From: Candidatus Spechtbacterales bacterium
GTDB lineage: Bacteria; Patescibacteriota; Minisyncoccia; Spechtbacterales; 2-12-FULL-38-22
Direction of reading: 5' to 3'
DNA: 64,000 nucleotides
Assembly: GCA_040879145.1 (NCBI GenBank)
Contig: JBBDKX010000021.1
Coordinates: forward strand, 29,256 to 93,255
The first letter of the stretch is position 1, and the number at the start of each line of letters is the position of its first letter. Positions 10,317-40,058 of the stretch are shown here, piece by piece. The notes below the pieces were generated by a model, which had not been told where the DNA came from, made no database searches, and saw nothing but the letters and a program-made list of their open reading frames with translations. The position numbers were made by a program, and so were the translations under genes.

Positions 10317-10337
10317 GATTTTGTTTAAATCTTATTT

Positions 10338-10729
10338 TGGCGGTGTTTTTTGATTGATGTTCGAACTTTTTTTGAGGAAAACCCCCAATAAGGAAGCCAG
10401 CCCCGCCACGGCTCGGAAACCTCGCCACACCACAGAAAAATACTCTTTGCTCTTTTCATTTTGCGCGCGCCGGATTTCTTTTTCTTCTAATGAAAAGAGT
10501 ATTTTTCTGCGGTGTTCTGCCCTCCAAGTATTCGGGCAGGTGGCGGGGCTGTCCTCAATTTGATTTCGTAAAGAAAAAGCGGAATTCCCCCCAAACCCCC
10601 CTTCCGCTTTTTCTTTTCTCAAACGGAACGGGAACGGAAGCAGTCGGGCAAAAATTCCTTCCCCCCAAACCCCTTCCTTTTTGCCCGCCTGCTTGGGCTT
10701 CGCCCACAAAACTTTTCGGCGGGACGGCG
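10338..10729. repeat. 392-bp inverted repeat, copy 1 (IR-A1); GC-rich, highly self-complementary; partner at 20572-20964
   Basis: Reverse complement matches 20572..20964 with only a few mismatches; ends in TTGGCGGTG. Confidence 0.9.
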
Positions 10730-11467
10730 TTATTTTATCAAATTCCAATTATCGAGGAAATATCCCATTTCGTGATCTTTATTTCCGAGATACACTTTTT
10801 CGTCTCTAAATTTGATATTCACTCGATAGCGTTTTCCATGCCCGACTTCCAAAATGGCTTTTTCGTGGACTTTCTTTTCAACTTCATGAAATGGCAAAAT
10901 CAAAAAATTGTTTTTCTTCTCGCCGTGCAAAACAAAAATATAGTAAATATTTCCGTTGCTGTGGCGTTCAAAAGACACTTTGCGAATATCAAAAACATAA
11001 GTATCAAAACTATTCAAATTTGAGGTTTTAACCTGTATGCCAAACAATTGATTTTCTTTGACCGCCACAATATCCATTCCCACATCTACGCTCATTATAC
11101 TGGCGTTGAAACCACGAAAAAGCAACTCGCTACAAACTAAATACTCGCCAGCTTTTCCGGTAAATCCACCAGCAATAACAATTTTTTCTTCTTCCTCTTT
11201 TTCCGCTTCAATAATCTTTGGCGTTTCTTTGATTTCTTTTTTGTTTGGATTGAGCGCAAAAGTTCCGGGTGCGGTTTTGATAAAATCCGAGCCTTCAACT
11301 TTGGTTTTAATATCTACCGTGATTTGCGCGTTCATTGATGCTTCTGGTGTTGCGCCTTCTGTTTCCAAAATACCAGACTCCAAAGCCAACCGAGTGATTT
11401 CGGTATAATGCAAGGGCGTTTTTGCCTTTTTCAATATTTCAATTGCCGATTGTTTGAATGTGTTCAT
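10730..11467 (-). CDS. HARE-HTH (Mrr_N-like winged helix) + restriction-endonuclease-fold protein; candidate Mrr-like nuclease
   Basis: N-term SAIEILKKAKTPLHYTEITRLALESG...GSDFIKTAPGTFAL (HARE-HTH); middle GEYLVCSELLFRG...DVGMDIVAVKE...IQVKT resembles a PD-(D/E)xK core; translationally coupled to upstream gene. Confidence 0.5.
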   Translation of the reverse strand: MNTFKQSAIEILKKAKTPLHYTEITRLALESGILETEGATPEASMNAQITVDIKTKVEGSDFIKTAPGTFALNPNKKEIKETPKIIEAEKEEEEKIVIAGGFTGKAGEYLVCSELLFRGFNASIMSVDVGMDIVAVKENQLFGIQVKTSNLNSFDTYVFDIRKVSFERHSNGNIYYIFVLHGEKKNNFLILPFHEVEKKVHEKAILEVGHGKRYRVNIKFRDEKVYLGNKDHEMGYFLDNWNLIK

Positions 11468-11468
11468 A

Positions 11469-12755
11469 TTATTCTAAGGTTTTATCGTTATCAGAAAGCT
11501 CTGCAAATTTAGCTTCCATTGTGGGATTTCCGCGCGTTAGTCTTTTGATTGTTAAATCTTCAGCTTTATTATTGGCAAGGCGAAGATTATTTTCAGAAGA
11601 CAAGAGAGCGTCTTTAGTTTTTTGAAGATGATCAATGGTTCTGTCTATTTCTTCAATAGCGGTTTTAAATTTGCGACTAGCAAGATCATAATTTTTGGCA
11701 AAACCTTCTTTAAACTTATTTATATTATCCTCAAAGTTTGTTATATCAACATTTTGGCTTTTAACTAAAGCGAGTTCAGCTTTATATTTCAGTGAGTTCA
11801 TCGCCGCGTTGCGAAGCAAGGTAATAATTGGAATGAAAAATTGTGGACGAACAACATACATTTTGGGGTATTTATGAGCAACATCAACAATTCCGGTGTT
11901 GTATAGCTCATTTTCAGCTTCCAAAAGCGAAACAAGAACGGCATACTCGCATTTCTTTTCAGTACGATCTTTGTCTAGTTCTCGCAAAAAATCGTCGTTT
12001 CGTTTTTTTGTAGCAGTTTCATCTCCCTCATTCTTCATCTCAAACATGATTGAGATAATTTCATTGCCGGTTTCGTCGGTCTCTCGATAAACATAATCAC
12101 CCTTACTTCCTGTTTTTGAATCGTTATCTTTTTCAAAATAAGCGTGTTGAAAAGCAGTCGCGCGAAGTTTGTTAAATTCGGTTTCGCAATGCTGTTCAAG
12201 TGTTTCCCCAACCATTTTGGTTGAGAGCTTGAGCTTCATATCTTTGCGAAGGGCGATCTCATCATCTTTCATCTTTATAATATCGTCTTTGGTTTTAAGA
12301 TCGGCTAAATACTTTTCAAGCAATGATTTTTCCAGCAGTTGTTTTTCGGTTTCTTTGCTTTTTAGGTCATTAGCCAGATCATCACGCTCTTTTTCAATCT
12401 TTTTGACTGCTTCGGTAACACTGAGTTTTTTCTCTACCTCAGATTTATCAATCTTTGATTTCATTTCGGCGAGTTCAGCTTCCTTCTTCGCCAATTGTTC
12501 AGCAAGACTGCGATCCTTCTCGGCTCTTAACTCCACCAGTTCTTTATCTTTCTTCGCGAGTTCGTCTTGTAATGTATTTTTGAGATTGGATTCGGCTAAT
12601 TTAACAGCACTTTCTTTTTCCTTTTCCGCAATATTTAATCGCTCACGCAATTCTTCTTCAAATTTATGATCACGAACCTGTTTGAGGATATCAGCAAAAC
12701 CAGCCTCATCGACTTTGAAAACTTTTTTACAATTTGGACATATAATATCTTGCAT
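11469..12755 (-). CDS. DUF2130-like protein: N-terminal zinc ribbon, long coiled coil, C-terminal globular (RmuC/nuclease-like) domain
   Basis: [20 protein letters not shown], then about 200 aa of Glu/Lys coiled coil, C-terminal [22 protein letters not shown]; 18 nt after hsdR. Confidence 0.5.
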
Positions 12756-12773
12756 ATTGATTATTTTATTTTG

Positions 12774-15700
12774 TTATAACTTACCACCTGAAATATCAAA
12801 GAATCGCTCAAAGAAACTTGTTAGCTTATACAAAACACTTTCTCGTTTCTGTGTTCTTTCACCAGTTGGAGAAAATCGAGACACGGGCGGTAATACTTTT
12901 GATATCGCAGTACCAGTTGTTGCAACGCTTCCGTCTCGAAAAGCATTTTTTATAAATTTATAGGTTGCCTCTTTATCAAGATTTTCATTTTCAATAATTT
13001 TTTCCAATTCCTCAATCTTCTTTTCTTCTACAAATTTTTGCCAATCTTCATCAACAATTGAATGCACATCAAGAGAGGTAATAAATTGATTAATGAGATC
13101 CTTTTTATTTCGGAGTTCAACGCTAGAATCAATCGCTTTATTAATATCAACCAAAAGTTCTTTATTCTTTGTATGATCTTCGTGATATCTTTTTATAAGC
13201 CCTAAAATATAATCAATATTAATCTCGACTTGCTTAATAAGCTCCATTTCAAAGACTAGATCGTCATTAACATTTTCTTGTTCTCCATCAACACCTTTGC
13301 GAAATTCATTATACAAATCAATATACATGCTGTGATAATCCTGCACATCACGCTCGGTCAGAATTTCATTACCTGCGAATTCATCAAAAGTTGTCAGGAT
13401 ATTTCGCACACGCAAAACCGCTCCATATAATTTGATAAAATCTTTTTGGTTCTGTTCTCCAACAATACTTTCACCGACTGGAAATTTCTCTAAAAGTTCG
13501 TCTATTAAACTTTTGTAACCCCGGACTTGTTTTTCGCCGTCTTTATAGCCATTGTAATAATCGGCATAGGCTTTCAGCAGGACAATGCCACATGCTTCTT
13601 TGTCTCCAAAAAGTGCAATAGATTCGTTAGTTGCTTTTTCTAGGTTGCGAAAACAAACAATATTTCCAAAGGTTTTTACACTGTTTAAAATGCGGTTTGT
13701 TCTGGAAAATGCTTGTAACAATCCATGTAAACGAAGATTTTTATCAACCCATAAAGTATTAAGAGTTGTTGCGTCAAATCCGGTCAAAAACATGTTTACC
13801 ACAATCAAAATATCTATTTCTCTTTTTTTAACTCTTTCGCTTACATCTTTATAATAATTTTGAAACTTATCTGACGAAGTATCATAGGAAGTTCCAAACA
13901 TCTTGTTATAATCAACGATAGCTTTTTCCAGAAAATCTCGAGAGCTGACATCAAGTCCGCTCGTATCTTCAGAATTTTCATCAATCATTCCGTCCGCGTC
14001 TTCATCATTGACCCCAAAACTAAAAATCGTAGCTATTTTAAGTCGTTTGTCGCTTGGCTCGTCGGTTAGTTGCTTTTTAAATTCAAGATAATACTTTTTT
14101 GCCACATCAATAGACGAAACGGCAAAAATAGAATTAAATCCCGCCAGTCTGCGATCCTGAATTTTATAAAAACTATTTCGTTTTGTCTTTTGGTCAAAAT
14201 GTTCTCGAATATATCGGACAATATTTTCCAGTCGCTCTGGGGCGCAAAGTATAGCCTCGCGATCAATATCTTTCACTTTTGCATCTTCAATATTTTCCGC
14301 TTCACGAACTGTAGAAACATAATCAACCTTAAACGGCAAAACATTTTTGTCAGCAATTGCATTGACGATTGTGTAAGTGTGCAATTTTTCTCCAAAAGCT
14401 TGTTCGGTAGTTTTGAAATCAATGCGACCGCCAGATGAAGAATTTACCGCAAAAATTGGCGTGCCGGTAAAGCCAAAAAGATGATAATTGTTAAATGCTT
14501 TGACGATACTCGCATGCATATCGCCAAATTGTGAACGATGGCACTCGTCAAAAATCAAAACAATATGTCCGTCAAAAATAGTGTGTCCAGAGTTTCGATT
14601 GATAAATCTGTCTAATTTTTGAATCGTTGTAATAATTATCCGAGAATTAGAATTTTCTAATTGTTTTTTCAAAATAGCGGTACTGGTATTGCTATTCGCC
14701 GCCCCTTTTTCAAATTTGTCATACTCTCGCATTGTTTGATAGTCCAAATCCTTACGATCAACTACAAATAAAACTTTATCTACATAAGGTAATTTGCTGA
14801 CGAGTTGAGCGGTTTTAAAACTGGTCAAAGTCTTTCCCGAACCTGTCGTATGCCAAATATAACCGCCTGCTTCTATTGTCCCTAGTTTTTTATAATTTGT
14901 ACTAACCTCAACTCTGCTCAATATTCGTTCGGTAGCAACTATTTGATATGGTCGCATCGCTAAAAGCTGTTTATCGGTAGTAAACACACAATATTTAGTC
15001 AAAATATTCAAAATCGTATGCTTGGCAAAAAATGTCTTGGCAAAATCCATCAGCTCGGTAATTGGTTTATTTGTCGCGTCTGCCCACCAGCTCGTAAATT
15101 CAAAACTATTGCTCGATCTTTTTCCTTTTTTGATTTTGCCTTCGCTTGCTTCTTTTATGTGCTGTGATCTGGTTGTATTGCTGTAATATTTGGTATGCGT
15201 TCCATTGGAAATAATAAAAAGTTGTACATATTCAAAAAGTCCGCTGGATGCCCAAAAACTTTCTCGTTGGTAACGATTGATTTGATTAAATGCTTCTTGG
15301 ATGGCGACACCACGGCGTTTTAGCTCGATATGAACAAGAGGAAGTCCGTTTACCAGAACTGTCACATCATAACGATTCACTCGCTGTCCGTCCTCGGTCG
15401 CATATTGATTGATCACCTGCAAGCTGTTGTTGTGAATATTTTTCTTGTCTATTAGATCAATATTCTTAAAAGTGCCGTCATCTCGGTCTAATATTTTTGT
15501 GCTATCTTCTTGAATAGTGGCGGTTTTTTCTTCAATGCTTTGATTTGGATTGGCAATAATACTGACAAAAAACTTTCCCCATTCGGTATCGGTAAAAGTA
15601 AAATTATTTAGTTTTTCCAACTGTTGACGCAGATTAAGAACAAGCTCATTTTCAGAAGTGATTTTCAAATATTCGTATGCTTGCGTTTCTAATTGTTTTA

Positions 15701-15827
15701 TAAAAACACTCTCAAGATCGGCTTCACTTTGGTAGTGAGCCACTCTTTTGGTATCTGGAACATACTCGGCAACAACCGTGCTTTGAGTGCTTTCGGCGAC
15801 TAAGTTGTATTTATTCTTATTTGGCAT
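12774..15827 (-). CDS. hsdR: Type I restriction enzyme R subunit (HsdR)
   Basis: 1017 aa; HsdR_N, helicase motif I HTTGSGKTLT, motif II FDECHRSQ, C-terminal HsdR_C; overlaps hsdS by 11 nt. Confidence 0.9.
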   Translation of the reverse strand: MPNKNKYNLVAESTQSTVVAEYVPDTKRVAHYQSEADLESVFIKQLETQAYEYLKITSENELVLNLRQQLEKLNNFTFTDTEWGKFFVSIIANPNQSIEEKTATIQEDSTKILDRDDGTFKNIDLIDKKNIHNNSLQVINQYATEDGQRVNRYDVTVLVNGLPLVHIELKRRGVAIQEAFNQINRYQRESFWASSGLFEYVQLFIISNGTHTKYYSNTTRSQHIKEASEGKIKKGKRSSNSFEFTSWWADATNKPITELMDFAKTFFAKHTILNILTKYCVFTTDKQLLAMRPYQIVATERILSRVEVSTNYKKLGTIEAGGYIWHTTGSGKTLTSFKTAQLVSKLPYVDKVLFVVDRKDLDYQTMREYDKFEKGAANSNTSTAILKKQLENSNSRIIITTIQKLDRFINRNSGHTIFDGHIVLIFDECHRSQFGDMHASIVKAFNNYHLFGFTGTPIFAVNSSSGGRIDFKTTEQAFGEKLHTYTIVNAIADKNVLPFKVDYVSTVREAENIEDAKVKDIDREAILCAPERLENIVRYIREHFDQKTKRNSFYKIQDRRLAGFNSIFAVSSIDVAKKYYLEFKKQLTDEPSDKRLKIATIFSFGVNDEDADGMIDENSEDTSGLDVSSRDFLEKAIVDYNKMFGTSYDTSSDKFQNYYKDVSERVKKREIDILIVVNMFLTGFDATTLNTLWVDKNLRLHGLLQAFSRTNRILNSVKTFGNIVCFRNLEKATNESIALFGDKEACGIVLLKAYADYYNGYKDGEKQVRGYKSLIDELLEKFPVGESIVGEQNQKDFIKLYGAVLRVRNILTTFDEFAGNEILTERDVQDYHSMYIDLYNEFRKGVDGEQENVNDDLVFEMELIKQVEINIDYILGLIKRYHEDHTKNKELLVDINKAIDSSVELRNKKDLINQFITSLDVHSIVDEDWQKFVEEKKIEELEKIIENENLDKEATYKFIKNAFRDGSVATTGTAISKVLPPVSRFSPTGERTQKRESVLYKLTSFFERFFDISGGKL

Positions 15828-16998
15828 ATTCTTTTTCTTTGAAAGTTAGAAGTTTCCCTCGGTAGTATTCATATTGTGATCGACGAGCTTTGAGTTCAGC
15901 CGGTAAGCCAATTGAAATATCATTTACAAGGGCATCAAATTTGTCGAGGATTGAAACAATTCGTTTTTGTTCGGGTAAGAGTGGAATAGGAATTTTAAAC
16001 TCTTTTACCTTGGCATCTGAAATTGATGGATATGCAGAACCTTCTTGCTTCTGTTCAACATAATCATTAAAACGACTAGAAGCAATATTGAAATATATCC
16101 ATTTTGGCAGAACTTTTTTTTCATCTGCTCTTAAAACACAATATCCAGTACTTGCAATCTGCCCGTCATAAACATCATCAATTAGAGTATATCGTCGTAG
16201 GGTTGGACGAGTGGTTGCAAAAATCACATCATCTTTTTGTATAAGTTTTTGCGCTCTACTAGGTGCGTTATTTGAATTAATTTCAACAGTTTCATTTATA
16301 CTATGATCATCACGGCTAACAGATGTTAAATCAATATATTTATAAATTTTGTCTATTTCTTTCCATTTTATATTTTGAGTTGAGAATGTTACTTCCCCCA
16401 AAGTTTTATATTCTACATCTTTTATATTCAACAAATCATCTCGATAATGCTCATACTGCTTCTTCCTCGCCTCCAGCTCTGCCTCCAGCTCTGCCTCCAG
16501 CTCTGTAAAACTATCAAGAATTTTGACGATTTCTTGTTGGACTGGGAGGGGTGGGATGGGGATTTTGATTTTTTCCATTACATTACTCATTATCTTGGGA
16601 TTTCCCATTCCAGCACTAACATATTTTTTAGATAATGTCGCCAAGATATATGAAAGGAACTTCATGTTCACATTCCTATCTTTAGCTTTCAAAAGTCCGC
16701 AAACATTCGTAATACTAAATTTTCCGTTACGATAGAAAATTGAACCAGCATATGCTCCGTCAGTTGTCCAAGTTATATACTCACCGTCATAGTCATAAGT
16801 ATTGATGCGACCAAAAACACCGTTGTCCGCTGTTTGAGATGAATACACTGGATACTCGCCGGCATTTTCATTCAAATAATCTTTTGACATTACTCTCCCG
16901 CGATTGATTTGGCAGATTTCACCAATACTCTTTAACTCAATCCCATTCGGGCAAAGTTCAGCAATTAGTTTTTCGATTTTAGATTGATTAGTTATCAT
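15817..16998 (-). CDS. hsdS: Type I restriction-modification specificity subunit (HsdS), two target-recognition domains
   Basis: 393 aa; conserved central region LPPLPVQQEIVKILDSFTELEAELEAELEARKKQYEHYRDDLL and C-terminal LPEQKRIVSILDKFDALV...LKARRSQYEYYRGKLL. Confidence 0.85.
   Translation of the reverse strand: MITNQSKIEKLIAELCPNGIELKSIGEICQINRGRVMSKDYLNENAGEYPVYSSQTADNGVFGRINTYDYDGEYITWTTDGAYAGSIFYRNGKFSITNVCGLLKAKDRNVNMKFLSYILATLSKKYVSAGMGNPKIMSNVMEKIKIPIPPLPVQQEIVKILDSFTELEAELEAELEARKKQYEHYRDDLLNIKDVEYKTLGEVTFSTQNIKWKEIDKIYKYIDLTSVSRDDHSINETVEINSNNAPSRAQKLIQKDDVIFATTRPTLRRYTLIDDVYDGQIASTGYCVLRADEKKVLPKWIYFNIASSRFNDYVEQKQEGSAYPSISDAKVKEFKIPIPLLPEQKRIVSILDKFDALVNDISIGLPAELKARRSQYEYYRGKLLTFKEKEYAK
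16468..16503. repeat. 12-bp tandem repeat x3 (CGCCTCCAGCTC / TGCCTCCAGCTC x2) encoding (ELEA)n in hsdS central conserved region
   Basis: Directly visible in sequence; in-frame 4-aa repeat ELEAELEAELEA. Confidence 0.9.
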
Positions 16999-18593
16999 AA
17001 TTTTTTAAGTGAATCGACATCGCTTTCTATATATCCTCTTAAGATATCAATTGACTCTTTCAGTTTTTCATCAAAATCACCCTTCTTGTTTGCCGGATAA
17101 TGGATACAATTTCTAATAAATGTTGGCAATGTTACTTTCGCATTTTTTACTTTAGGTTTACTTGTATCAGTACAGTCTTTTTCAGCTTTTTTTATTTGTT
17201 TGAGATATTGTTCATCAAAAGCATTTATACCTATACTTTCAATATGCTTTGATTCATCTTTTTCTTTAGAGTTCTTGTCATTAACAAACCAATCTCTTAA
17301 TTTATCGTAAAGTTCGTTGTGGTATTGTTCATCTAAAATGTCGAAAACTTCATATGACACTTCTGCATAGCTTGTTTGTTTTTTACCTAATTCATCAACC
17401 TCTCGTACATTTGTATATTCTTCATTATTTTGATTTTTTATCTTTTCAACTCGATAATATCTACCCAAATCTTTTTTATCAATCATGTAGTTCGAGTGTG
17501 TGGCGAATAAAACAATATTACTTTTGCTATTGTTTGTAATCTCTACAAGCTGAGCAAGTAAATGCTCTTGTGCTTTTGGATGTAAATGTGTTTCAGGCTC
17601 ATCAAGTAAAATAATTGTATTTTGCAGTTCCTCATTTTTATTTTCTGCAACGACAGTTAATAAAAAAGAAATGAATTGCTTAAAACCATCACTCCGCATG
17701 TCTGATGTCTGAGCTTTTCCTTCTGTATCAATATCTTTAACATGAAAATTAATATGCCCATCCATTATCTTAAATGTAATTTCTATAGGATGTTTGGGCC
17801 AAGCTGTATTAATATGCTCTGTTACATTTTTGCCAAGTCTCTTTTCAAGATATTCACAAGTTGGAGTATCAGCTAAAGCATCCTCTAGTTCCTGTTTTAT
17901 TTTATCTTGAGAAATTGAAGATAGTAAAAAACAGTTTCTCAGAGGTATTGAGGTGTTTGTGTCATTAATAAACTGTTCAATATTTATCGGTTTTGAAATT
18001 AGATAACGATCTTCTGCAGTCCAGAAAATTGTTTTATGTACATTTTCCTCTATAAAGTTATCAAATTCATCTTTGTTATTGATTTCAATTTCTTGATCTC
18101 CTTCAAAAACTGAAGTTGAATATTCAGGATCAGCACTAGCCTTAGAAAAACTAATAACATAATCTGCAATCAAAGAGCTCAAAATTTTATTCTTTGGTTT
18201 TTTAACTTCCTTAATTTTACTATCTTCAACATCTTGCGTCTGCCCACCTTCTATAGCAGAAACTTCTTTTTCTAAATTTGGGACTGGATTATCAACAGAA
18301 TCTTCTTTATTTAAAATCTCGTACAATTCCTTATCCTCTTTCGAAGTAATACTATATCGATAAGTAATTTTTATTTCTTCTTTTAATCTAAAGTCTTTTA
18401 ATAATGGAAGTTTTGTACCAGAGTCGTCAACTAATCCATCTTTTAAGCCAATCGCTTTTAATATAGATGATTTACCAGCTTCATTTATTCCTATTAATCC
18501 GTAAGTGAAACTATTGTCATCTCTTTTGATTATGTTAAAAGGAGTTTCTTTTATACTTCTATAATTTTCAATTGTAATTTTTGTGATTTTCAT
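16995..18593 (-). CDS. ABC/SMC-like AAA ATPase (OLD/AAA_15-like head) with about 130-aa C-terminal domain of unknown function, embedded between hsdM and hsdS
   Basis: Start reassigned to MKITKITIENYRSIK (ATG 18593, 4 nt after hsdM stop); Walker A GINEAGKSSILKAIGL; Walker B ILLDEPETHLHP; ATHSNYMID. Confidence 0.7.
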   Translation of the reverse strand: MKITKITIENYRSIKETPFNIIKRDDNSFTYGLIGINEAGKSSILKAIGLKDGLVDDSGTKLPLLKDFRLKEEIKITYRYSITSKEDKELYEILNKEDSVDNPVPNLEKEVSAIEGGQTQDVEDSKIKEVKKPKNKILSSLIADYVISFSKASADPEYSTSVFEGDQEIEINNKDEFDNFIEENVHKTIFWTAEDRYLISKPINIEQFINDTNTSIPLRNCFLLSSISQDKIKQELEDALADTPTCEYLEKRLGKNVTEHINTAWPKHPIEITFKIMDGHINFHVKDIDTEGKAQTSDMRSDGFKQFISFLLTVVAENKNEELQNTIILLDEPETHLHPKAQEHLLAQLVEITNNSKSNIVLFATHSNYMIDKKDLGRYYRVEKIKNQNNEEYTNVREVDELGKKQTSYAEVSYEVFDILDEQYHNELYDKLRDWFVNDKNSKEKDESKHIESIGINAFDEQYLKQIKKAEKDCTDTSKPKVKNAKVTLPTFIRNCIHYPANKKGDFDEKLKESIDILRGYIESDVDSLKKL

Positions 18594-18597
18594 AAAT

Positions 18598-20178
18598 TTA
18601 TCGTTTAGTATTTTCAATATCCGCCACAATCTCATCAATCGCAGTACGCAGTTCATTTTGTCTTGACACGATCTTGGCAATTTTTTCGTTGAGTTCCGTT
18701 ATATTCACCACCTCGCGTGTATCTTCCGCCATCACATAACTTGAAACCGCAATATTGTAATCATTCTCACCAATAGTTTTATTATCAACTAACTTTGCAA
18801 AATACTCTGCATCTTGTCGTAGCGTAAAAGCATCAAGAATTTTTTTGCGATTTCCTTCGCTCAATTTATTTTTATTTCCGCCCCGTACAAATTCAGCCGA
18901 GGCATCAATAAATAAAGTTTTGTTGTCTTTTTTGCTTTTTTTCAAAACAATAATGCAAGTAGCAATAGTCACCCCAAAAAATAGATCGGGGGGAAGCTGG
19001 ATAACCGTATCAATATAGTTATTATCAACCAAATACTTGCGGATTTTTTGTTCAGCTCCGCCACGATAGAGAACTCCCGGAAATTCAACAATCGCCGCCG
19101 TTCCGCTGGTTGAAAGCCACGCAAGCATGTGCATGGTAAAAGCGAGATCAGCTTTGCTCTTTGGCGCCAACACCCCAGCCGGCGAAAAACGCGGATCATT
19201 AATCATCAAAGGATTGGCATCGCCGTCCCACTTTATCGAATATGGCGGATTAGAAACAATGGCGTCAAACGGTTCATCATCCCAATGTTTTGGATCAGTG
19301 AGTGTGTCGCCGTGAGCAATATCAAAATGATTGTAATTAATATCATGCAAAAACATGTTGATACGGCAAAGATTGTAGGTAGTGAGATTTATTTCTTGAC
19401 CAAAAAATCCCTGCCTGACATTTTCCTTGCCAAGCACTTTTGCAAATTTCAAAAGAAGCGAACCAGATCCACAGGCTGGATCGTAGACTTTATTAACTTC
19501 TGTTTTGCCTGCTGTTGCGATTTCCGCCAAAAGCTCGCTCACTTCTTGAGGTGTATAATATTCTCCGCCAGATTTACCAGCATTAGATGCGAACATCGCC
19601 ATTAAATATTCGTAAGCATCACCAAAAGCGTCGATTGTATTATCTCCATAATTACCAAGACGAAGATCGCCGATGGCTTCTAAAAGTTTTACGAGTTTTT
19701 GATTTCTTTTCTCTACAGTTCCACCGAGCTTATTTGAATTCACATCTAAATCGTCAAATAATCCTTTCAAGTCATCTTCACTATCAAATCCTTTCGCAGA
19801 ATTTTCGATATTATCAAAAACATTTGAAAGTGTTTCGTTAAGTTTTGCATCGTTGCGAGCATTTTTACGAACATTTACAAAAAGAGCACTTGGTAAAATA
19901 TAAAAACCTTTTTCTTTTATAGTGTCGGCTCTTCCAAATTCAGCTTCTTTATCAGAAAGTGAAGCATAATCAAAATCTTTGTTGCCGGTGCGTCGCTCAT
20001 CGGCATTGATGTAATTTGTAAGATTTTCGCTGATGAAACGATAAAAAAGTATTCCAAGAACATATTGCTTGAAATCCCACCCATCAACGGCACCTCGCAA
20101 ATCATTGGCAATCTGCCAAATAGCACGATGAAGTTCGGCTCGTTCTTGTTCTTTGGTTGTATTTAGATTATTTGCCAT
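18598..20178 (-). CDS. hsdM: Type I restriction-modification DNA methyltransferase (HsdM), N6-adenine
   Basis: 526 aa; HsdM_N; SAM motif YDPACGSGSLL; catalytic SNPPYSIKW. Confidence 0.9.
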   Translation of the reverse strand: MANNLNTTKEQERAELHRAIWQIANDLRGAVDGWDFKQYVLGILFYRFISENLTNYINADERRTGNKDFDYASLSDKEAEFGRADTIKEKGFYILPSALFVNVRKNARNDAKLNETLSNVFDNIENSAKGFDSEDDLKGLFDDLDVNSNKLGGTVEKRNQKLVKLLEAIGDLRLGNYGDNTIDAFGDAYEYLMAMFASNAGKSGGEYYTPQEVSELLAEIATAGKTEVNKVYDPACGSGSLLLKFAKVLGKENVRQGFFGQEINLTTYNLCRINMFLHDINYNHFDIAHGDTLTDPKHWDDEPFDAIVSNPPYSIKWDGDANPLMINDPRFSPAGVLAPKSKADLAFTMHMLAWLSTSGTAAIVEFPGVLYRGGAEQKIRKYLVDNNYIDTVIQLPPDLFFGVTIATCIIVLKKSKKDNKTLFIDASAEFVRGGNKNKLSEGNRKKILDAFTLRQDAEYFAKLVDNKTIGENDYNIAVSSYVMAEDTREVVNITELNEKIAKIVSRQNELRTAIDEIVADIENTKR

Positions 20179-20182
20179 AATT

Positions 20183-20392
20183 TTATTTCATTAAATCATC
20201 AAGCGAAACGCCGAGAGCGTCCGCAATTTTTTTGACTGTATCAATAGTAGGGTTGGGAGTAGAGCCAGCTTCAATTTTGGCAATCGTATGAAAAGCCAAA
20301 TCTGCTTTTTTTGAAAGCACATCTTGAGAAATACCGAGCTTGTTTCGGTATTTCTTTATATTCTCGCCAATTGTGGATTTTTCGTTTGACAT
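20183..20392 (-). CDS. XRE-family HTH transcriptional regulator (candidate C-protein/controller of the R-M operon)
   Basis: 69 aa; IKKYRNKLGISQDVLSKKADLAFHTIAKIEAG HTH_XRE; first gene of operon, 4 nt before hsdM. Confidence 0.8.
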   Translation of the reverse strand: MSNEKSTIGENIKKYRNKLGISQDVLSKKADLAFHTIAKIEAGSTPNPTIDTVKKIADALGVSLDDLMK

Positions 20393-20397
20393 ATTCG

Positions 20398-20451
20398 TAT
20401 AGTTTTACTATTATAGTTGTATAGTATTAAAAACATCACTTATTTATAGTT
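20398..20451 (-). promoter_or_regulatory. Putative promoter/operator of XRE-hsdM operon: TATAAT -10 (minus strand, 20410-20415) and 4 copies of ACTATA(A)
   Basis: Minus-strand read: ...ACTATACAACTATAATAGTAAAACTATACGAAT-ATG; repeated half-sites resemble C-box operators. Confidence 0.3.
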
Positions 20452-20571
20452 AGTATATGAAATTTTTAGCATTTAGTCAAACAAAATTAGGGAGTTCTTT
20501 TGACATAACGCGCGCACGGGTGGGTGGGGCAAGCGTTATCCCTCTTTTATCCTCTCTTTTGTTTTCTGTCC

Positions 20572-20964
20572 CGCCGTCCCGCCGAAAAGTTTTGGGGGCG
20601 AAGCCCAAGCAGGCGGGCAAAAAGGAAGGGGGTTGGGGGGAAGGAATTTTTGCCCGACTGCTTCCGTTCCCGTTCCGTTTGAGAAAAGAAAAAGCGGAAG
20701 GGGGGTTTGGGGGGAATTCCGCTTTTTCTTTACGAAATCAAATTGAGGACAGCCCCGCCACCTGCCCGAATACTTGGAGGGCAGAACACCGCAGAAAAAT
20801 ACTCTTTTCATTAGAAGAAAAAGAAATCCGGCGCGCGCAAAATGAAAAGAGCAAAGAGTATTTTTCTGTGGTGTGGCGAGGTTTCCGAGCCGTGGCGGGG
20901 CTGGCTTCCTTATTGGGGGTTTTCCTCAAAAAAAGTTCGAACATCAATCAAAAAACACCGCCAA
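20572..20964. repeat. 392-bp inverted repeat, copy 2 (IR-A2)
   Basis: Near-identical reverse complement of 10338..10729; ends ...CACCGCCAA, overlapping the start of IR-B1. Confidence 0.9.
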
Positions 20965-21091
20965 TTTTCACTTTTTGTGAAATCGTAAGGAATTGCCTCG
21001 GCGCAAAGCGCCTCGGCATGGTATTTTTCCGCAATTTTGAAGGCATTTTTGAAATCCAAAAACAAAGAGCGGTCGGCAATGCGGAAGTTCG
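20958..21091. repeat. About 134-bp inverted repeat IR-B1 (inverted copy of the recombinase 3' coding end plus tRNA-Ser-proximal sequence)
   Basis: Reverse complement identical to 22575..22709. Confidence 0.85.
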
Positions 21092-21205
21092 CAGAGCGAA
21101 GCTCTGGCAAAATGAAATTTTGCAAACCAATCTTTTTTCTTTCGCTTTCAGCGAAAGGTTGAGCGTATTTTTCTTTGATTGCCCAAAAACTAATTTCAAA
21201 ACAAT

Positions 21206-22819
21206 ATGGACAACATAAATTTACAAACCAAAAAGTTTTTCCTCTATGCCCGTAAATCCACGGACGAACCCGAAAGGCAGGTTTTGAGTATTGAAGCGCA
21301 AATTTTCGAGCTGAAAGAATACGCCCGAAAAGAAAATTTGCAGATCGTCCGTGAATTTGTGGAAAGCAAAACCGCCAAAGAACCCGGGCGAGAAATTTTT
21401 AATGAAATGGTGGCGGGCATAGAGAAAAACGAAGCCGAGGGAATTTTAGCGTGGCACCCTGACCGTCTTGCTCGCAATTCCATAGACGGCGGACGAATAA
21501 TCTATCTTGTAGATACTGGAAAGATCACCACGCTAAAATTTCCAACTTTTTGGTTTGATTCAACTCCACAGGGAAAATTTATGTTGTCCATTGCTTTTGG
21601 GCAATCAAAATACTATGTGGATAATCTTTCGGAAAATATAAAGAGGGGTATTCGCCAGAAATTGCGAAATGGAATTTGGCCCGCTTGGGCGCCACTTGGC
21701 TATATAAACGATAAAAACGCTCGCTGTATCGCTGTGGACAAAGAAAAGGCGAAGTATATCAAGCGGGCTTTTGAAATGTATTCAACTGGCGAATATCCCC
21801 TCGCTCAAATCCGAAAGATTATCAATTCCTTGGGCTTGGTTGGCAAGAAAGGCAAAATGCTTTCCGTCTCAAATTATCAATATATGCTCAAGAACAAAAT
21901 ATATTTTGGCATGATTGAATATAACGGCGAATTGTATGACGGAAAGCATGAACCGATTATCACAAAGAAACTTTTTGATTCTGTTCAAGAAGTGATGATG
22001 AAAAAATCCAAACCGAAAACGCCAAAATTGAAACCGTATGTGTATAGAGGATTTTTCCGTTGCGGAGAGTGTGGCTGTTTCATAACTACCGAAACGCAGA
22101 AAGGTCATAACTACCTGCGATGCACTAAACGGAAAAATCCTTGCACGCAAAAATATGTTCGCGAGGAAATCATCACTTCTCAAATAAAAGAGGAAATCAA
22201 AAAAGTTTCTTTGTCTTCCGCTTGGGCAAACGCTTCAATCAATTATTTTGAAAATGAAAAATTGAAAACCGCCCAAGCGGAAAGCTCTTTTGCCCAAAAG
22301 TCGCGAGATGAGCTTGTGGAAACAGAAACAAAACTTGATCGTTTGCTTGATTTACATTTGGAAGGCAGTTTGTCGCAAACGGAATATGCTACTAAAAAGC
22401 ACAAGCTCATTCTCGCAAAAAAGGATTTGGAAGAAAAAATCTCGTCTTTTGGGCGAAAGAGCAATAATCGGTTCGAACTTGCCATAAACTTCATAAAAGA
22501 AGCCAACCAAGCCGAAAAATACGCTCAACAAGAAAATCCCGAAAGGATTCGGGATTTTCTCAAAAAGATTGGTTCGAACTTCCGCATTGCCGACCGCTCT
22601 TTGTTTTTGGATTTCAAAAATGCCTTCAAAATTGCGGAAAAATACCATGCCGAGGCGCTTTGCGCCGAGGCAATTCCTTACGATTTCACAAAAAGTGAAA
22701 ATTGGCGGAGGGGGTGGGACTCGAACCCACATAGGCTTGCGCCTGCCAGTTTTCAAGACTGGTTCCTTAGCCAATTCGGAGCACCCCTCCTTATTTATTT
22801 TTTCTTCTTTTTACCCTGA
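21206..22819 (+). CDS. Large serine recombinase (resolvase N-domain + recombinase domain + zinc ribbon + coiled coil)
   Basis: YARKSTDEPERQ catalytic Ser motif; PLGYIND recombinase domain; CGECGCFITTETQKGHNYLRC zinc ribbon; ORF as predicted runs through IR-B2 and antisense across tRNA-Ser, so true stop is uncertain. Confidence 0.8.
   Translation: MDNINLQTKKFFLYARKSTDEPERQVLSIEAQIFELKEYARKENLQIVREFVESKTAKEPGREIFNEMVAGIEKNEAEGILAWHPDRLARNSIDGGRIIYLVDTGKITTLKFPTFWFDSTPQGKFMLSIAFGQSKYYVDNLSENIKRGIRQKLRNGIWPAWAPLGYINDKNARCIAVDKEKAKYIKRAFEMYSTGEYPLAQIRKIINSLGLVGKKGKMLSVSNYQYMLKNKIYFGMIEYNGELYDGKHEPIITKKLFDSVQEVMMKKSKPKTPKLKPYVYRGFFRCGECGCFITTETQKGHNYLRCTKRKNPCTQKYVREEIITSQIKEEIKKVSLSSAWANASINYFENEKLKTAQAESSFAQKSRDELVETETKLDRLLDLHLEGSLSQTEYATKKHKLILAKKDLEEKISSFGRKSNNRFELAINFIKEANQAEKYAQQENPERIRDFLKKIGSNFRIADRSLFLDFKNAFKIAEKYHAEALCAEAIPYDFTKSENWRRGWDSNPHRLAPASFQDWFLSQFGAPLLIYFFFFLP
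22575..22709. repeat. IR-B2 (partner of 20958-21091), ending in the tRNA-Ser 3' terminus
   Basis: Sequence identity with reverse complement of IR-B1. Confidence 0.85.
22703..22790 (-). tRNA. tRNA-Ser (anticodon UGA), long variable arm, CCA encoded
   Basis: Minus-strand GGAGGGGTGCTCCGAATTGGCTAAGGAACCAGTCTTGAAAACTGGCAGGCGCAAGCCTATGTGGGTTCGAGTCCCACCCCCTCCGCCA; cloverleaf and anticodon loop CTTGAAA. Confidence 0.85.
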
Positions 22820-23643: not shown

Positions 23644-24660
23644 TTAATTGTTGTATTTTTTCAAATGTTTAGGATTATTACTGCTTATTGTATCAAAATA
23701 AATTTTCATGTCATGCTTACTATCCAAACGCACATCCCGCCCTGCCAGTCTTGGATTTAAGCCAGTATTGCGCATTATTTTGAAAACTGAATTTCTAAGG
23801 GGTTCTGAATAAGATGTAAATGACAGTTTTTTATAAGAGTACTCCTTACTCTTAACTCTATATCTATGAATAAAAATAGAGCCATCTGTGTCAACCAAGC
23901 CCCGCAGGCACGCAATTTCGAAATCTTTATCACCCATTATCCATTTCGGTATATCTACCTGCTTTTTTATTTTATTACCTCTTACTAAACCCAGATTATT
24001 TTCACAAAACCTTACTAACTCTACTCGAGATACCGCATAAATACACGCATTAGCATCTTTTCGTTCGTGAATTCCCACATATACTCCAAACAGATTCTCC
24101 ATTAAATTTTTTACATATACGCCATATTTTTTATCATCTTTACTATGAAGTGTAACTGTAACCTGTTGATTAGATATACCCCCATCCCCTAACATTATTC
24201 CAACAAACTCTGCAAGGCTTTTTGAGTATTTAGGTTTTTTAATTTTTATTGGAGCACTTGTAAGCCCGCTTGACTTAAAACGCCCTTCTTTCTCCCACCA
24301 TTCATACCATTTCTGTTTTCTGTATTTCTCATTTTTTGGCATTTCCCCATACTTACTAATAACAGCCTCCCACCCCAACTTTGCGCCTTCATGCGCATAC
24401 CAATATTTATCTAACATCGTTATATCTTTAGGCCAAGATTGTTTAGATTTCTCACATAAAATTTTCAACGATTTTTCATTTATTAAAAATTTTTCACGTC
24501 GCCAATCTCTAACAGTACGCTCAGACCTACCACACCACTTTGCCATTTGTTCAACTGAAAACTCTTTTTCTATATTTTCTATAAAAGCTTTTTGTTTTCC
24601 TTTTGGAAATCTTATTCTGCTATCTTTAATCTTTTCAGCCATATCTCCATAATACACCAT
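23644..24660 (-). CDS. Free-standing LAGLIDADG homing endonuclease (two motifs) with N-terminal HTH-like region
   Basis: LAEFVGIMLGDGGIS and LRGLVDTDGSIF LAGLIDADG motifs; 338 aa; 21 nt upstream of tRNA-Ser(GCT). Confidence 0.8.
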   Translation of the reverse strand: MVYYGDMAEKIKDSRIRFPKGKQKAFIENIEKEFSVEQMAKWCGRSERTVRDWRREKFLINEKSLKILCEKSKQSWPKDITMLDKYWYAHEGAKLGWEAVISKYGEMPKNEKYRKQKWYEWWEKEGRFKSSGLTSAPIKIKKPKYSKSLAEFVGIMLGDGGISNQQVTVTLHSKDDKKYGVYVKNLMENLFGVYVGIHERKDANACIYAVSRVELVRFCENNLGLVRGNKIKKQVDIPKWIMGDKDFEIACLRGLVDTDGSIFIHRYRVKSKEYSYKKLSFTSYSEPLRNSVFKIMRNTGLNPRLAGRDVRLDSKHDMKIYFDTISSNNPKHLKKYNN

Positions 24661-28560: not shown

Positions 28561-29184
28561 TCAAACGAAACTAGAGAGATAAAGCTCTCCCTTTATCTTG
28601 CCCTCTTCTCTCATTTTTATCAGTTTTCCTCTTAAGTCAGGAGTTAGGGATGAGCAGCCTGTAAAATAAGCATCTCCGTTGAATATAATATTGTCGGGTA
28701 TTTCTTTGAGAGATGTGCAGCCTCCAAAATAAGCCCTTCTTTCAAAGGTTGTGTTGTCGGGTATTTCTTTGAGAGATGTGCAGTGCCCAAAATTAGCATC
28801 TCCTTCAAAGGTTGTGTTGTCGGGTATTTCTTTTAATGTTTCCGCATAGGGACTAAAATCTATATTCTTGGACACGATGATCTTCTCTTTTTCTGTATCT
28901 ATTTTAAAATTGGCTTCAATAAATTCTCCCGCCTCCTCTTCGCTGTTACCCAGGTTTTCCCGCGCCCATTGTATGAGTTTTTCTTTTTCTCTTTCTGGGT
29001 TGAACTCCTGTTCTTGAGCGCCACTATCTGCATTATCATATTTTTCTAATTCATCTAGATCTTGAGGATCATCATCCTGAGGCATCGCACCTCCTAGTTT
29101 TTCTATACTCATAATATTAAAATTTAATTCTACTCTTCCATAATACCCCCCCCGACCTAAAAATGCAAGCGTTTTTATACACAA
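28561..29184 (-). CDS. Leucine-rich-repeat (BspA/TpLRR-like) repeat protein; true start uncertain (29184 or 29112)
   Basis: 21-aa repeats IPDNTTFEGDANFGHCTSLKE x3; 63-bp nucleotide tandem repeats. Confidence 0.5.
   Translation of the reverse strand: MCIKTLAFLGRGGYYGRVELNFNIMSIEKLGGAMPQDDDPQDLDELEKYDNADSGAQEQEFNPEREKEKLIQWARENLGNSEEEAGEFIEANFKIDTEKEKIIVSKNIDFSPYAETLKEIPDNTTFEGDANFGHCTSLKEIPDNTTFERRAYFGGCTSLKEIPDNIIFNGDAYFTGCSSLTPDLRGKLIKMREEGKIKGELYLSSFV
28681..28828. repeat. 63-bp tandem repeats (about 2.3 copies plus a degenerate copy upstream) inside LRR gene
   Basis: TTGTCGGGTATTTCTTTGAGAGATGTGCAG... repeated. Confidence 0.85.
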
Positions 29185-39559: not shown

Positions 39560-39939
39560 AGCCCGTTCTTTGCAATCTAAAATCAATTTGACGGAGCGAA
39601 TTTTCAAATGAATGCTAGGCGTGAGGAGCGAAGCGATGCCAGGAGCATCGTGAGCAACGAACAACAACGCAGGCATTGAAAATTCGCCCGCCGACTCATT
39701 TAATTTACATTGCGGTCCCATCGTCTAGTCTGGCCTAGGACGCCAGGTTTTCATCCTGGTAACACGGGTTCGAATCCCGTTGGGACCGCAATGTACGTTA
39801 GTAAAAGGAAACAAAATAGTACGCCATCTGCTTCGTTACGCTTTCCTAGAAGTAATATAAATTACTCCTTCGTCACCGCGCCTACCATATGGCGCACTCT
39901 TTTGTTTTCAAATTGATTTTAGATTGCAAAGAACGGGCT
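39560..39939. repeat. Segment bounded by perfect 31-bp inverted repeat (39560-39590 / 39909-39939) enclosing an intact tRNA-Glu
   Basis: AGCCCGTTCTTTGCAATCTAAAATCAATTTG and its exact reverse complement. Confidence 0.85.
39714..39788 (+). tRNA. tRNA-Glu (anticodon UUC)
   Basis: GGTCCCATCGTCTAGTCTGGCCTAGGACGCCAGGTTTTCATCCTGGTAACACGGGTTCGAATCCCGTTGGGACCG; close to the E. coli tRNA-Glu pattern. Confidence 0.85.
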
Positions 39940-39942
39940 GAA

Positions 39943-39991
39943 GCCTAGGACGCCAGGTTTTCATCCTGGTAACACGGGTTCGAATCCCGTT
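39943..39991 (+). other. 3' two-thirds of a second tRNA-Glu copy (D-loop to CCA), lacking its own 5' end
   Basis: GCCTAGGACGCCAGGTTTTCATCCTGGTAACACGGGTTCGAATCCCGTTGGGACCGCCA identical to intact copy; CCA encoded here but not in intact copy. Confidence 0.6.
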
Positions 39992-40058
39992 GGGACCGCC
40001 ATATAAATTACCAAAAGGAAAACGGCTTATTAAGCCGTTTTCCTTTATAGATCAATTA

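Follow-up and report, generated by a model that had tools for sequence, protein, structure and literature searches.

Two nuclease-type genes appended to a mobile type I restriction-modification operon in a Spechtbacterales bacterium

A 64,000-nt stretch of DNA from Candidatus Spechtbacterales bacterium (contig JBBDKX010000021.1, positions 29,256 to 93,255; hereafter the window, always at its full length) carries a type I restriction-modification (R-M) operon that ends in two further genes. One encodes a 428-aa DUF2130 protein and the other, the HARE gene, a 245-aa protein with an N-terminal HARE-HTH domain and a predicted PD-(D/E)XK nuclease domain. We find that the two are probably independent accessory nucleases riding on a mobile type I R-M operon, the HARE nuclease being a generic end-gene of R-M operons, and that they probably do not form a dedicated two-component system. 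Comparison loci from other sequences are labelled L001 to L172.

Co-occurrence of the two genes and the company each keeps

The initial annotation of this DNA had described the two genes as one module. We surveyed 80 HARE loci, one genome per species, whose products are 52-98% identical to the 245-aa protein, and 80 metagenome loci encoding DUF2130 proteins (58-88% identical), 62 of which extend 800 nt or more downstream of the gene. Of the 80 species-level HARE loci, 2 (L017 and L033) have DUF2130 within 10 kb, and no HARE gene was found in any of the 80 metagenome loci, the 62 with that much downstream sequence included. The two families do not recur side by side across genomes; a conserved gene-pair association is essentially absent, and the description of the genes as one system is not supported. 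Where the two do meet, their arrangement differs. DUF2130 is adjacent to the HARE gene on its upstream side in L017, in the same order as in the window and with a spacing of ~2 nt, beside a tRNA-Ser and with no R-M genes in between, whereas in L033 it lies downstream of the HARE gene, within ~1 kb.

Each gene also occurs by itself with the same type I system. In L024 and L080 this system (HsdR and HsdM 85-86% identical) lacks DUF2130, and hsdR is followed immediately by the HARE gene, and L090 carries it (85-87% identical) with DUF2130 and with no HARE gene in the 368 nt before the contig ends. The HARE gene keeps a 1-10 nt coupling to any upstream gene, so its tight spacing is not specific to DUF2130.

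The association that does recur is between the HARE gene and R-M operons, to which it is coupled as the 3′-terminal gene irrespective of whether they are of type I, II, IIG or III. Of the 75 loci in which an upstream gene could be called, 72 have it in the same direction and 60 at a distance of no more than 30 nt; this neighbour is of HsdR type (11-14 loci), N6_Mtase (7), D12 methylase (7), Eco57I (7), Methylase_S (6) or AlwI (2). Using a conservative local homology search, we identified an R-M component in the co-directional upstream run of 39 of the 61 loci with at least 3 kb of upstream sequence. Six apparent negatives were checked, and four of them are type III or IIG systems; among the apparent negatives, a type III-like Res protein is followed by a Piwi protein in L068, and a helicase by an SMC_N-type ATPase in L033. 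The linkage to methylases and R-M genes extends to distant members of the HARE family in Bacteroidota and an archaeon. On the other side of the gene there is no such constancy: the downstream genes are heterogeneous (83 families in 69 proteins), and nucleotide homology between loci runs from 0-10 nt ahead of the HARE start codon only as far as the stop codon.

A slot of variable content separates the R-M core from the HARE gene, holding a reverse transcriptase in L011, ThsB_TIR in L058, Trypsin_2 in L010, a partial trypsin-like protease in L013, and the Piwi protein and SMC_N ATPase of L068 and L033. DUF2130 occupies this slot in the window, and its place in a position that collects defence-type accessory effectors, although guilt by association, is the best hint to its function. 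The initial annotation's view that extra defence layers ride on the R-M operon agrees with this wider pattern across loci.

Elsewhere DUF2130 is mostly solitary, lying in variable regions with larger intergenic gaps. Its neighbours, taken on each side of 63 loci, fall into 137 families in 126 proteins, with a sprinkling of genes related to defence or mobile elements (ResIII, AAA_13, AAA_21, MTES_1575, DUF559, Schlafen/AlbA_2 and integrases); AAA_13 matches 5 of the 126. DUF2130 proteins 58-62% identical to that of the window are encoded on Lactococcus, Bradyrhizobium, Ralstonia and other plasmids, where the gene adjoins Eco57I-type R-M genes, AAA ATPases and transposases. On the Lactococcus plasmids pCV56A (L169 7001-10871) and pC42 (L170 7001-10623), the gene after DUF2130 encodes a large "TrlF family AAA-like ATPase" or AAA ATPase. 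A fixed ATPase partner for DUF2130 was considered and rejected, as homologues of the Lactococcus ATPases adjoin it in only 3 of the 80 metagenome loci. A phage origin was likewise rejected: tblastn searches of 50,697 phage records returned 0 matches to either protein, which agrees with host-side genes. The HARE gene was also not found in the plasmid collection searched.

The operon and its two terminal proteins

The operon is encoded on the minus strand and is given here in gene order, from the HTH gene through hsdM, the AAA_15 ATPase, hsdS, hsdR and DUF2130 to the HARE nuclease.

20183..20392, minus strand: XRE-type HTH protein, 69 aa, first gene of the operon (Pfam HTH_3, E = 9.3e-16)
18598..20178, minus strand: hsdM, N6-adenine methyltransferase, 526 aa (Pfam N6_Mtase, E = 1.3e-114, and HsdM_N)
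16995..18593, minus strand: AAA_15/AAA_21 (OLD/AriA/AbiL-like) ATPase, 532 aa, between hsdM and hsdS (Pfam AAA_15, E = 7.4e-22; PADLOC Old, AbiLi and AriA)
15817..16998, minus strand: hsdS, specificity subunit with two target-recognition domains, 393 aa (Pfam Methylase_S, E = 1.1e-53, two stretches)
12774..15827, minus strand: hsdR, type I restriction subunit, 1017 aa (Pfam HSDR_N, SWI2_SNF2, T1R_D3-like and EcoR124_C; PADLOC REase_I, E = 0)
11469..12755, minus strand: DUF2130 protein, 428 aa (Pfam DUF2130, E = 4.8e-87)
10730..11467, minus strand: HARE-HTH and predicted PD-(D/E)XK nuclease, 245 aa, last gene of both the operon and the island cargo

HsdM, HsdS and HsdR are all full length according to Pfam and PADLOC, and the 69-aa HTH protein is likely the controller protein of the operon. 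The six genes from hsdM onward are called identically in a separate public assembly (L172), where the ATPase is also 532 aa. This ATPase is missing from the otherwise 85-86% identical type I systems of L024 and L080 and is replaced by a different one (29% identical) in L090; the position between hsdM and hsdS is another accessory slot in the same operon.

The arrangement of the two terminal genes is as the initial annotation had it. Both are encoded in the same direction as hsdR with gaps of 18 nt and 1 nt, both open reading frames (ORFs) are intact, and the stop codon of the 245-aa gene ends at 10730, directly at the boundary of a 393-nt inverted-repeat arm (10337-10729). Homologues of each number in the hundreds to thousands, so that chance ORFs can be dismissed and both are real genes. 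In a promoter scan, the best promoter-like site of the minus strand is located at 20480-20452, upstream of the HTH gene, and between hsdR and the end of the operon a promoter and terminator scan gave no strong minus-strand promoter and no convincing terminator. Both nuclease-type genes are appended to the type I operon with gaps too small for separate promoters or terminators, and it is thus likely, judging from this spacing, that they are co-transcribed with hsdR.

The 245-aa protein begins with a HARE-HTH domain (residues 3-72, Pfam E = 1.9e-18), and its modelled N-terminal domain resembles winged helices, including the N-terminal domain of the RNA polymerase delta subunit. The winged helix had been called HARE-HTH/Mrr_N, of which the first half holds: Mrr_N and Mrr_cat gave no match to the protein at E ≤ 0.01, Mrr_cat_2 reached E = 0.11, and weak matches to Mrr_cat or Mrr_cat_2 were obtained in only 7 of 67 diverse family representatives. 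The nuclease domain spans about residues 104-206. Its match to PDDEXK_5 is below threshold in this protein (E = 7.5e-4, 20.0 bits against a gathering cut-off of 26.1; E = 2e-4 for the isolated domain), and 48 of the 67 representatives match the same family, the best at E = 2.2e-10. The sole columns invariant across the 67 are E108, D128, D132, Q145 and K147, a set that reads as a predicted D...QxK nuclease signature and that agrees with the PD-(D/E)xK-like core proposed earlier. The helix-strand-strand-strand order of the structural model is compatible with the predicted PD-(D/E)XK fold. Searches of PDB sequences with the protein or with a family profile yielded nothing relevant, even at E ≤ 10, and a single PHROG (function unknown) was alone in matching the nuclease domain. 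The family comprises 3334 representatives (50% clustering, E ≤ 0.001), and the 120 closest relatives listed are 73-95% identical and come from many candidate phyla.

The DUF2130 protein matches its family (PF09903, COG4487) over the full length of the profile (residues 153-408, profile positions 5-254 of 255). The family has been assigned to the PD-(D/E)XK superfamily, with function unknown (PMC3424549). Nine residues are invariant in an alignment of 30 homologues (E187, D220, E239, K241, C6, C9, H189, C190 and C269), and the first four follow the order expected of a PD-(D/E)XK site. AlphaFold (AF2) predicts a single long helix at residues 17-180 (pLDDT ~90) and further long helices at 308-333 and 339-407, so the coiled coil of the initial annotation is present at a length of ~165 aa and not the ~200 aa given there. 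The N-terminal zinc ribbon is reduced to half a ribbon at most, with one invariant CxxC (C6, C9) and no second knuckle. The Zn_ribbon_4 match covers only positions 3-17 of 36 (E = 0.0017, below cut-off), and the other invariant Cys and His residues (H189, C190, C269) are far off in sequence, within the nuclease domain. An RmuC-like C-terminal domain had also been proposed and was not recovered: the RmuC Pfam family gave no match even at E ≤ 10, and hhalign comparison of a DUF2130 alignment with 23 downstream proteins of at least 300 aa, drawn from a set with one Pfam RmuC match, returned probabilities of ~1% or less, with a shallow alignment and single-sequence targets. PDB sequence searches with the protein and a family profile found nothing relevant, and no functional study of DUF2130, COG4487 or TrlF turned up in the literature searched.

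Longer DUF2130 relatives (513-608 aa) contain extra coiled-coil repeat units of ~88 aa each, one in the 516-aa proteins and two in the 608-aa protein, which suggests a coiled coil of adjustable predicted length.

An island with nested inverted repeats

The operon lies within a 12.4-kb element (10337-22708) bounded by 7-nt direct repeats, TTGGCGG, at 10337-10343 and 22702-22708; the repeat is the complement of the tRNA-Ser(TGA) 3′ end, CCGCCA. The parts of the element outside the operon are as follows.

10337..10729: arm A1, 393 nt; its outer 7 nt, TTGGCGG, are the left direct-repeat copy
20572..20964: arm A2, reverse complement of A1 with 2 mismatches (99% complementary)
20958..21091: arm B1, contiguous with A2
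21206..22700, plus strand: large serine recombinase (Pfam Resolvase, Recombinase and Zn_ribbon_recom; PHROG integrase, E = 2e-73)
22575..22708: arm B2, 134 nt, reverse complement of B1 without mismatches; the 7 nt at its end, TTGGCGG, are the right direct-repeat copy
22703..22790, minus strand: tRNA-Ser(TGA), target of the integration; the direct repeat overlaps its 3′ end, CCGCCA

These features describe a serine-recombinase island inserted at a tRNA-Ser, with an unusual nested design in which the 393-nt arms surround the 9.8-kb R-M cargo and the perfect 134-nt arms surround the recombinase gene. The C-terminus of the recombinase is encoded within arm B2, and its ORF continues into the tRNA. 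The segment 20572-21091 (A2 and B1) reproduces, intact and inverted, the junction expected from excision, and as a consequence of this second copy the cargo and the recombinase gene are each flanked by long, near-perfect inverted repeats and may invert. A short-read Logan contig from the same organism (L172, SRR27977663, 9525 nt) consists of exactly the unique cargo, from hsdM to the HARE gene. Its breaks at both arms indicate that the arms are real repeats, and the orientation of the cargo in the window rests on one assembly.

Similar designs occur in other loci. Recombinases 47-53% identical to that of the window are flanked by 124-nt arms in L015 (2152-3896) and 173-nt arms in L023 (10672-12510), and one that is 37% identical is flanked by 73-nt arms in L044 (1643-4473). 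The inter-arm length is 1483-1497 nt in the window, L015 and L023, and 2685 nt in L044. A second repeat pair flanks the HARE-containing cargo in L044 (4584-12847) and L016 (3089-15210). Across the survey, a serine recombinase homologue is found within 10 kb of the HARE gene in ~17 of the 80 loci.

An island-end motif, GTTCGAACATCAATCAAAAAACACCGCC, is located ~200-400 nt past the HARE stop codon in four elements with differing R-M cargo, at the following positions.

L009: 6609-6636
L011: 9360-9387
L049: 1971-1998
window: 10337-10364 (reverse complement)

The shared motif suggests a common island end with what would be swappable cargo. A hairpin-like sequence conserved after the stop codon in several loci was considered as a tRNA and rejected; it is the start of an island arm.

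Three features elsewhere in the window are recorded here. The 3′ part of a tRNA-Glu(TTC) with its flank (39733-39811) is duplicated 210 nt downstream (39943-40021, 92% identity) and may be another integration scar. A 338-aa ORF on the minus strand (23644-24660), between tRNA-Ser(GCT) and tRNA-Arg, contains by inspection the LAGLIDADG-like motifs "GIMLGDGG" and "LRGLVDTDGS" and may encode a free-standing homing endonuclease. Three tandem 63-nt repeats are present at 28646-28834, 73-75% identical to the first copy.

Proposed action, alternatives and known systems

Our proposal for how the HARE nuclease would act is tentative. The HARE winged helix would read the modification status of DNA, and this reading would license cutting by the attached D...QxK nuclease wherever the self mark is missing or a foreign one is present, resulting in a sequence-independent second restriction activity that could be added to any methylase-bearing operon. 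Since near-identical HARE proteins accompany methylases of different specificity, such a reader cannot depend on the recognition sequence of the methylase, and because the gene is co-operonic with adenine methylases, indiscriminate cutting dependent on N6-methyladenine (6mA) is unlikely. The DUF2130 protein would act alone as an extra accessory effector, a coiled-coil, probably dimeric, PD-(D/E)XK DNA nuclease. The architecture of HARE-HTH fused to a restriction endonuclease (REase), and its link to adenine methylases, have already been described by comparative genomics, the architecture by Aravind and Iyer 2012 as cited in PMC10853773, PMC12839542 and PMC6591016: proteins of this kind were proposed as modification-discriminating nucleases beside Dnd and BREX (PMC10853773; PMC12839542), the bacterial HARE-HTH domain was suggested to read 6mA because it shares operons with N6-adenine methylases, and the HARE-HTH domain of human ASXL1 bound 6mA DNA in pull-downs (PMC6591016).

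Several observations weigh against two independent accessory nucleases, or against the modification-reading mechanism. The L017 pair retains 78% nucleotide identity with the window over ~2 kb, so the two genes can travel together once joined. In L001-L006 and L028 the HARE gene stands among housekeeping-like genes with no recognisable R-M genes, and the degree of conservation among its closest relatives is unusual for defence genes. In PADLOC-DB v2 the 245-aa protein reached only E = 0.0016 to the REase_II and Csx1 models with no system model matched, and the DUF2130 protein matched 0 families. AF2 confidence is low for the C-terminal nuclease domain of the HARE protein (pLDDT 46-82), and the DUF2130 nuclease domain is also poorly modelled. 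As to the mark that might be read, a reader that binds 6mA and cuts would conflict with the operon's own adenine methylase, and HARE-HTH may instead sense cytosine modifications (PMC11037411). C5-methylase genes are found no more than 5 kb away in L007 and L024, and in L085 the upstream run contains one; their proximity in these three loci may argue against simple cutting dependent on 5-methylcytosine.

We weighed three other explanations against these data. A dedicated two-gene nuclease system on the type I operon, in which DUF2130 and the HARE protein work together, for instance as sensor and effector, in one type IV-like defence module, would account for the conserved L017 pair, for the presence of both genes within ~1 kb in L033 and for the 1-nt spacing in the window, which suggests translational coupling. 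We consider it very unlikely, since DUF2130 is not within 10 kb in 78 of the 80 HARE loci, the HARE gene is absent from all 62 informative DUF2130 loci, the same type I system is found with either gene by itself (L024, L080, L090), DUF2130 is usually solitary among its 137 neighbour families, and the close coupling of the HARE gene holds for any upstream gene. A role in housekeeping repair or recombination, with DUF2130 as an RmuC-like recombination-limiting nuclease and the HARE protein as an Hjc-like junction resolvase, draws on the name "Holliday junction resolvase" that one source gives to some 245-aa homologues, on the RmuC-like coiled-coil and PD-(D/E)XK layout of DUF2130 and its 58-62% identity across phyla, and on the ordinary genes that surround the HARE gene in L001-L006. 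That role is hard to reconcile with the location of both genes in a 12.4-kb island that direct repeats delimit at a tRNA, with their patchy distribution, with DUF2130 on plasmids and beside transposases, with neighbours enriched for R-M and defence-type genes and with the lack of a Pfam match to RmuC or Hjc, and we regard it as very unlikely.

The HARE nuclease could also be a backbone gene of the island, a homing-type or site-directed endonuclease or a recombination helper, with the R-M genes as swappable cargo. PDDEXK_5, the best Pfam family for its nuclease domain, is the family of the I-Ssp6803I homing endonuclease; GTTCGAACATCAATCAAAAAACACCGCC lies past the gene in the window, L009, L011 and L049 despite differing upstream cargo; a recombinase homologue is nearby in about a fifth of the surveyed loci; and homology is limited to the ORF, with very high identity across phyla. 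Even so, most loci have no recombinase within 10 kb, the gene is always joined to the preceding operon without an intergenic region of its own, the methylase and R-M linkage reaches the distant Bacteroidota and archaeal members, and the gene has no intron or intein context and was not found in the phages or plasmids searched. This makes a backbone role unlikely in our estimation, and two independent accessory nucleases on a mobile R-M operon remain the explanation we favour.

Set beside known systems, the window protein shares with the HARE-HTH and REase architecture the N-terminal HARE-HTH domain, the C-terminal PD-(D/E)XK domain and the location in operons with methylases or modification-based defence, directly downstream of modification genes. 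It differs in belonging to a 245-aa subfamily that occurs chiefly in candidate-phyla-radiation bacteria and whose close relatives are highly conserved, and in ending a tRNA-integrated serine-recombinase island. Like the Mrr and DpnI enzymes (type IV and IIM), it would combine a winged-helix reader with a PD-(D/E)XK domain, and its D...QxK signature resembles that of Mrr, whose gene adjoins hsdR in E. coli K-12. Unlike Mrr it has no significant Mrr_N or Mrr_cat match, its domain order is reversed relative to DpnI, and its co-operonic adenine methylase would be awkward for a 6mA-dependent cutter. In contrast to I-Ssp6803I, whose family is the best Pfam match of the nuclease domain (48 of 67 representatives, best 2.2e-10), the window protein scores 20 bits against the 26.1 threshold, is operonic behind R-M genes without an intron and has an additional HARE-HTH domain.

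Some type I R-M loci contain or adjoin accessory genes, among them PrrC, RloC, the rlo genes and Abi/OLD-type ATPases, which provide a second line of defence. The window resembles these in carrying effector genes in or after hsdMSR, and its AAA_15/AAA_21 ATPase gene separates hsdM from hsdS; neither DUF2130 nor the HARE nuclease belongs to the protein families of those accessories. RmuC (PF02646) is similar to DUF2130 in general layout, and both families are listed in the PD-(D/E)XK superfamily (PMC3424549), whereas DUF2130 differs by an N-terminal CxxC hairpin and by a coiled coil that varies in ~88-aa steps.

A broader proposal is that candidate-phyla-radiation bacteria carry a family of modular defence islands, integrated at tRNA genes by serine recombinases, in which the HARE nuclease is the conserved 3′ anchor. 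R-M cores, whatever their type, and the contents of the accessory slot would be exchanged upstream of it, it would serve as a generic reader of methylation status compatible with any adenine methylase, and the cargo and recombinase segments may invert. We hold this proposal as a whole to be doubtful. A literature search, which did not cover Aravind and Iyer 2012, found no description of a fixed 3′ anchor behind a variable accessory slot.

Since tight spacing in this operon does not denote a two-component system, the pair should not enter defence-system catalogues as one unit. The generalisation that emerges is that one highly conserved HARE-HTH nuclease follows R-M operons whatever their type, with a slot that gathers known defence effectors in front of it. 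Should this nuclease read methylation whatever the sequence context, it would amount to a portable second restriction activity. DUF2130, a large family of no known function, would gain a first functional context, albeit a positional one. Both proteins are small and easily expressed, which makes these predictions directly testable, and the modular layout of R-M core, accessory slot and HARE anchor, together with the nested-repeat island that carries it, is worth following up.

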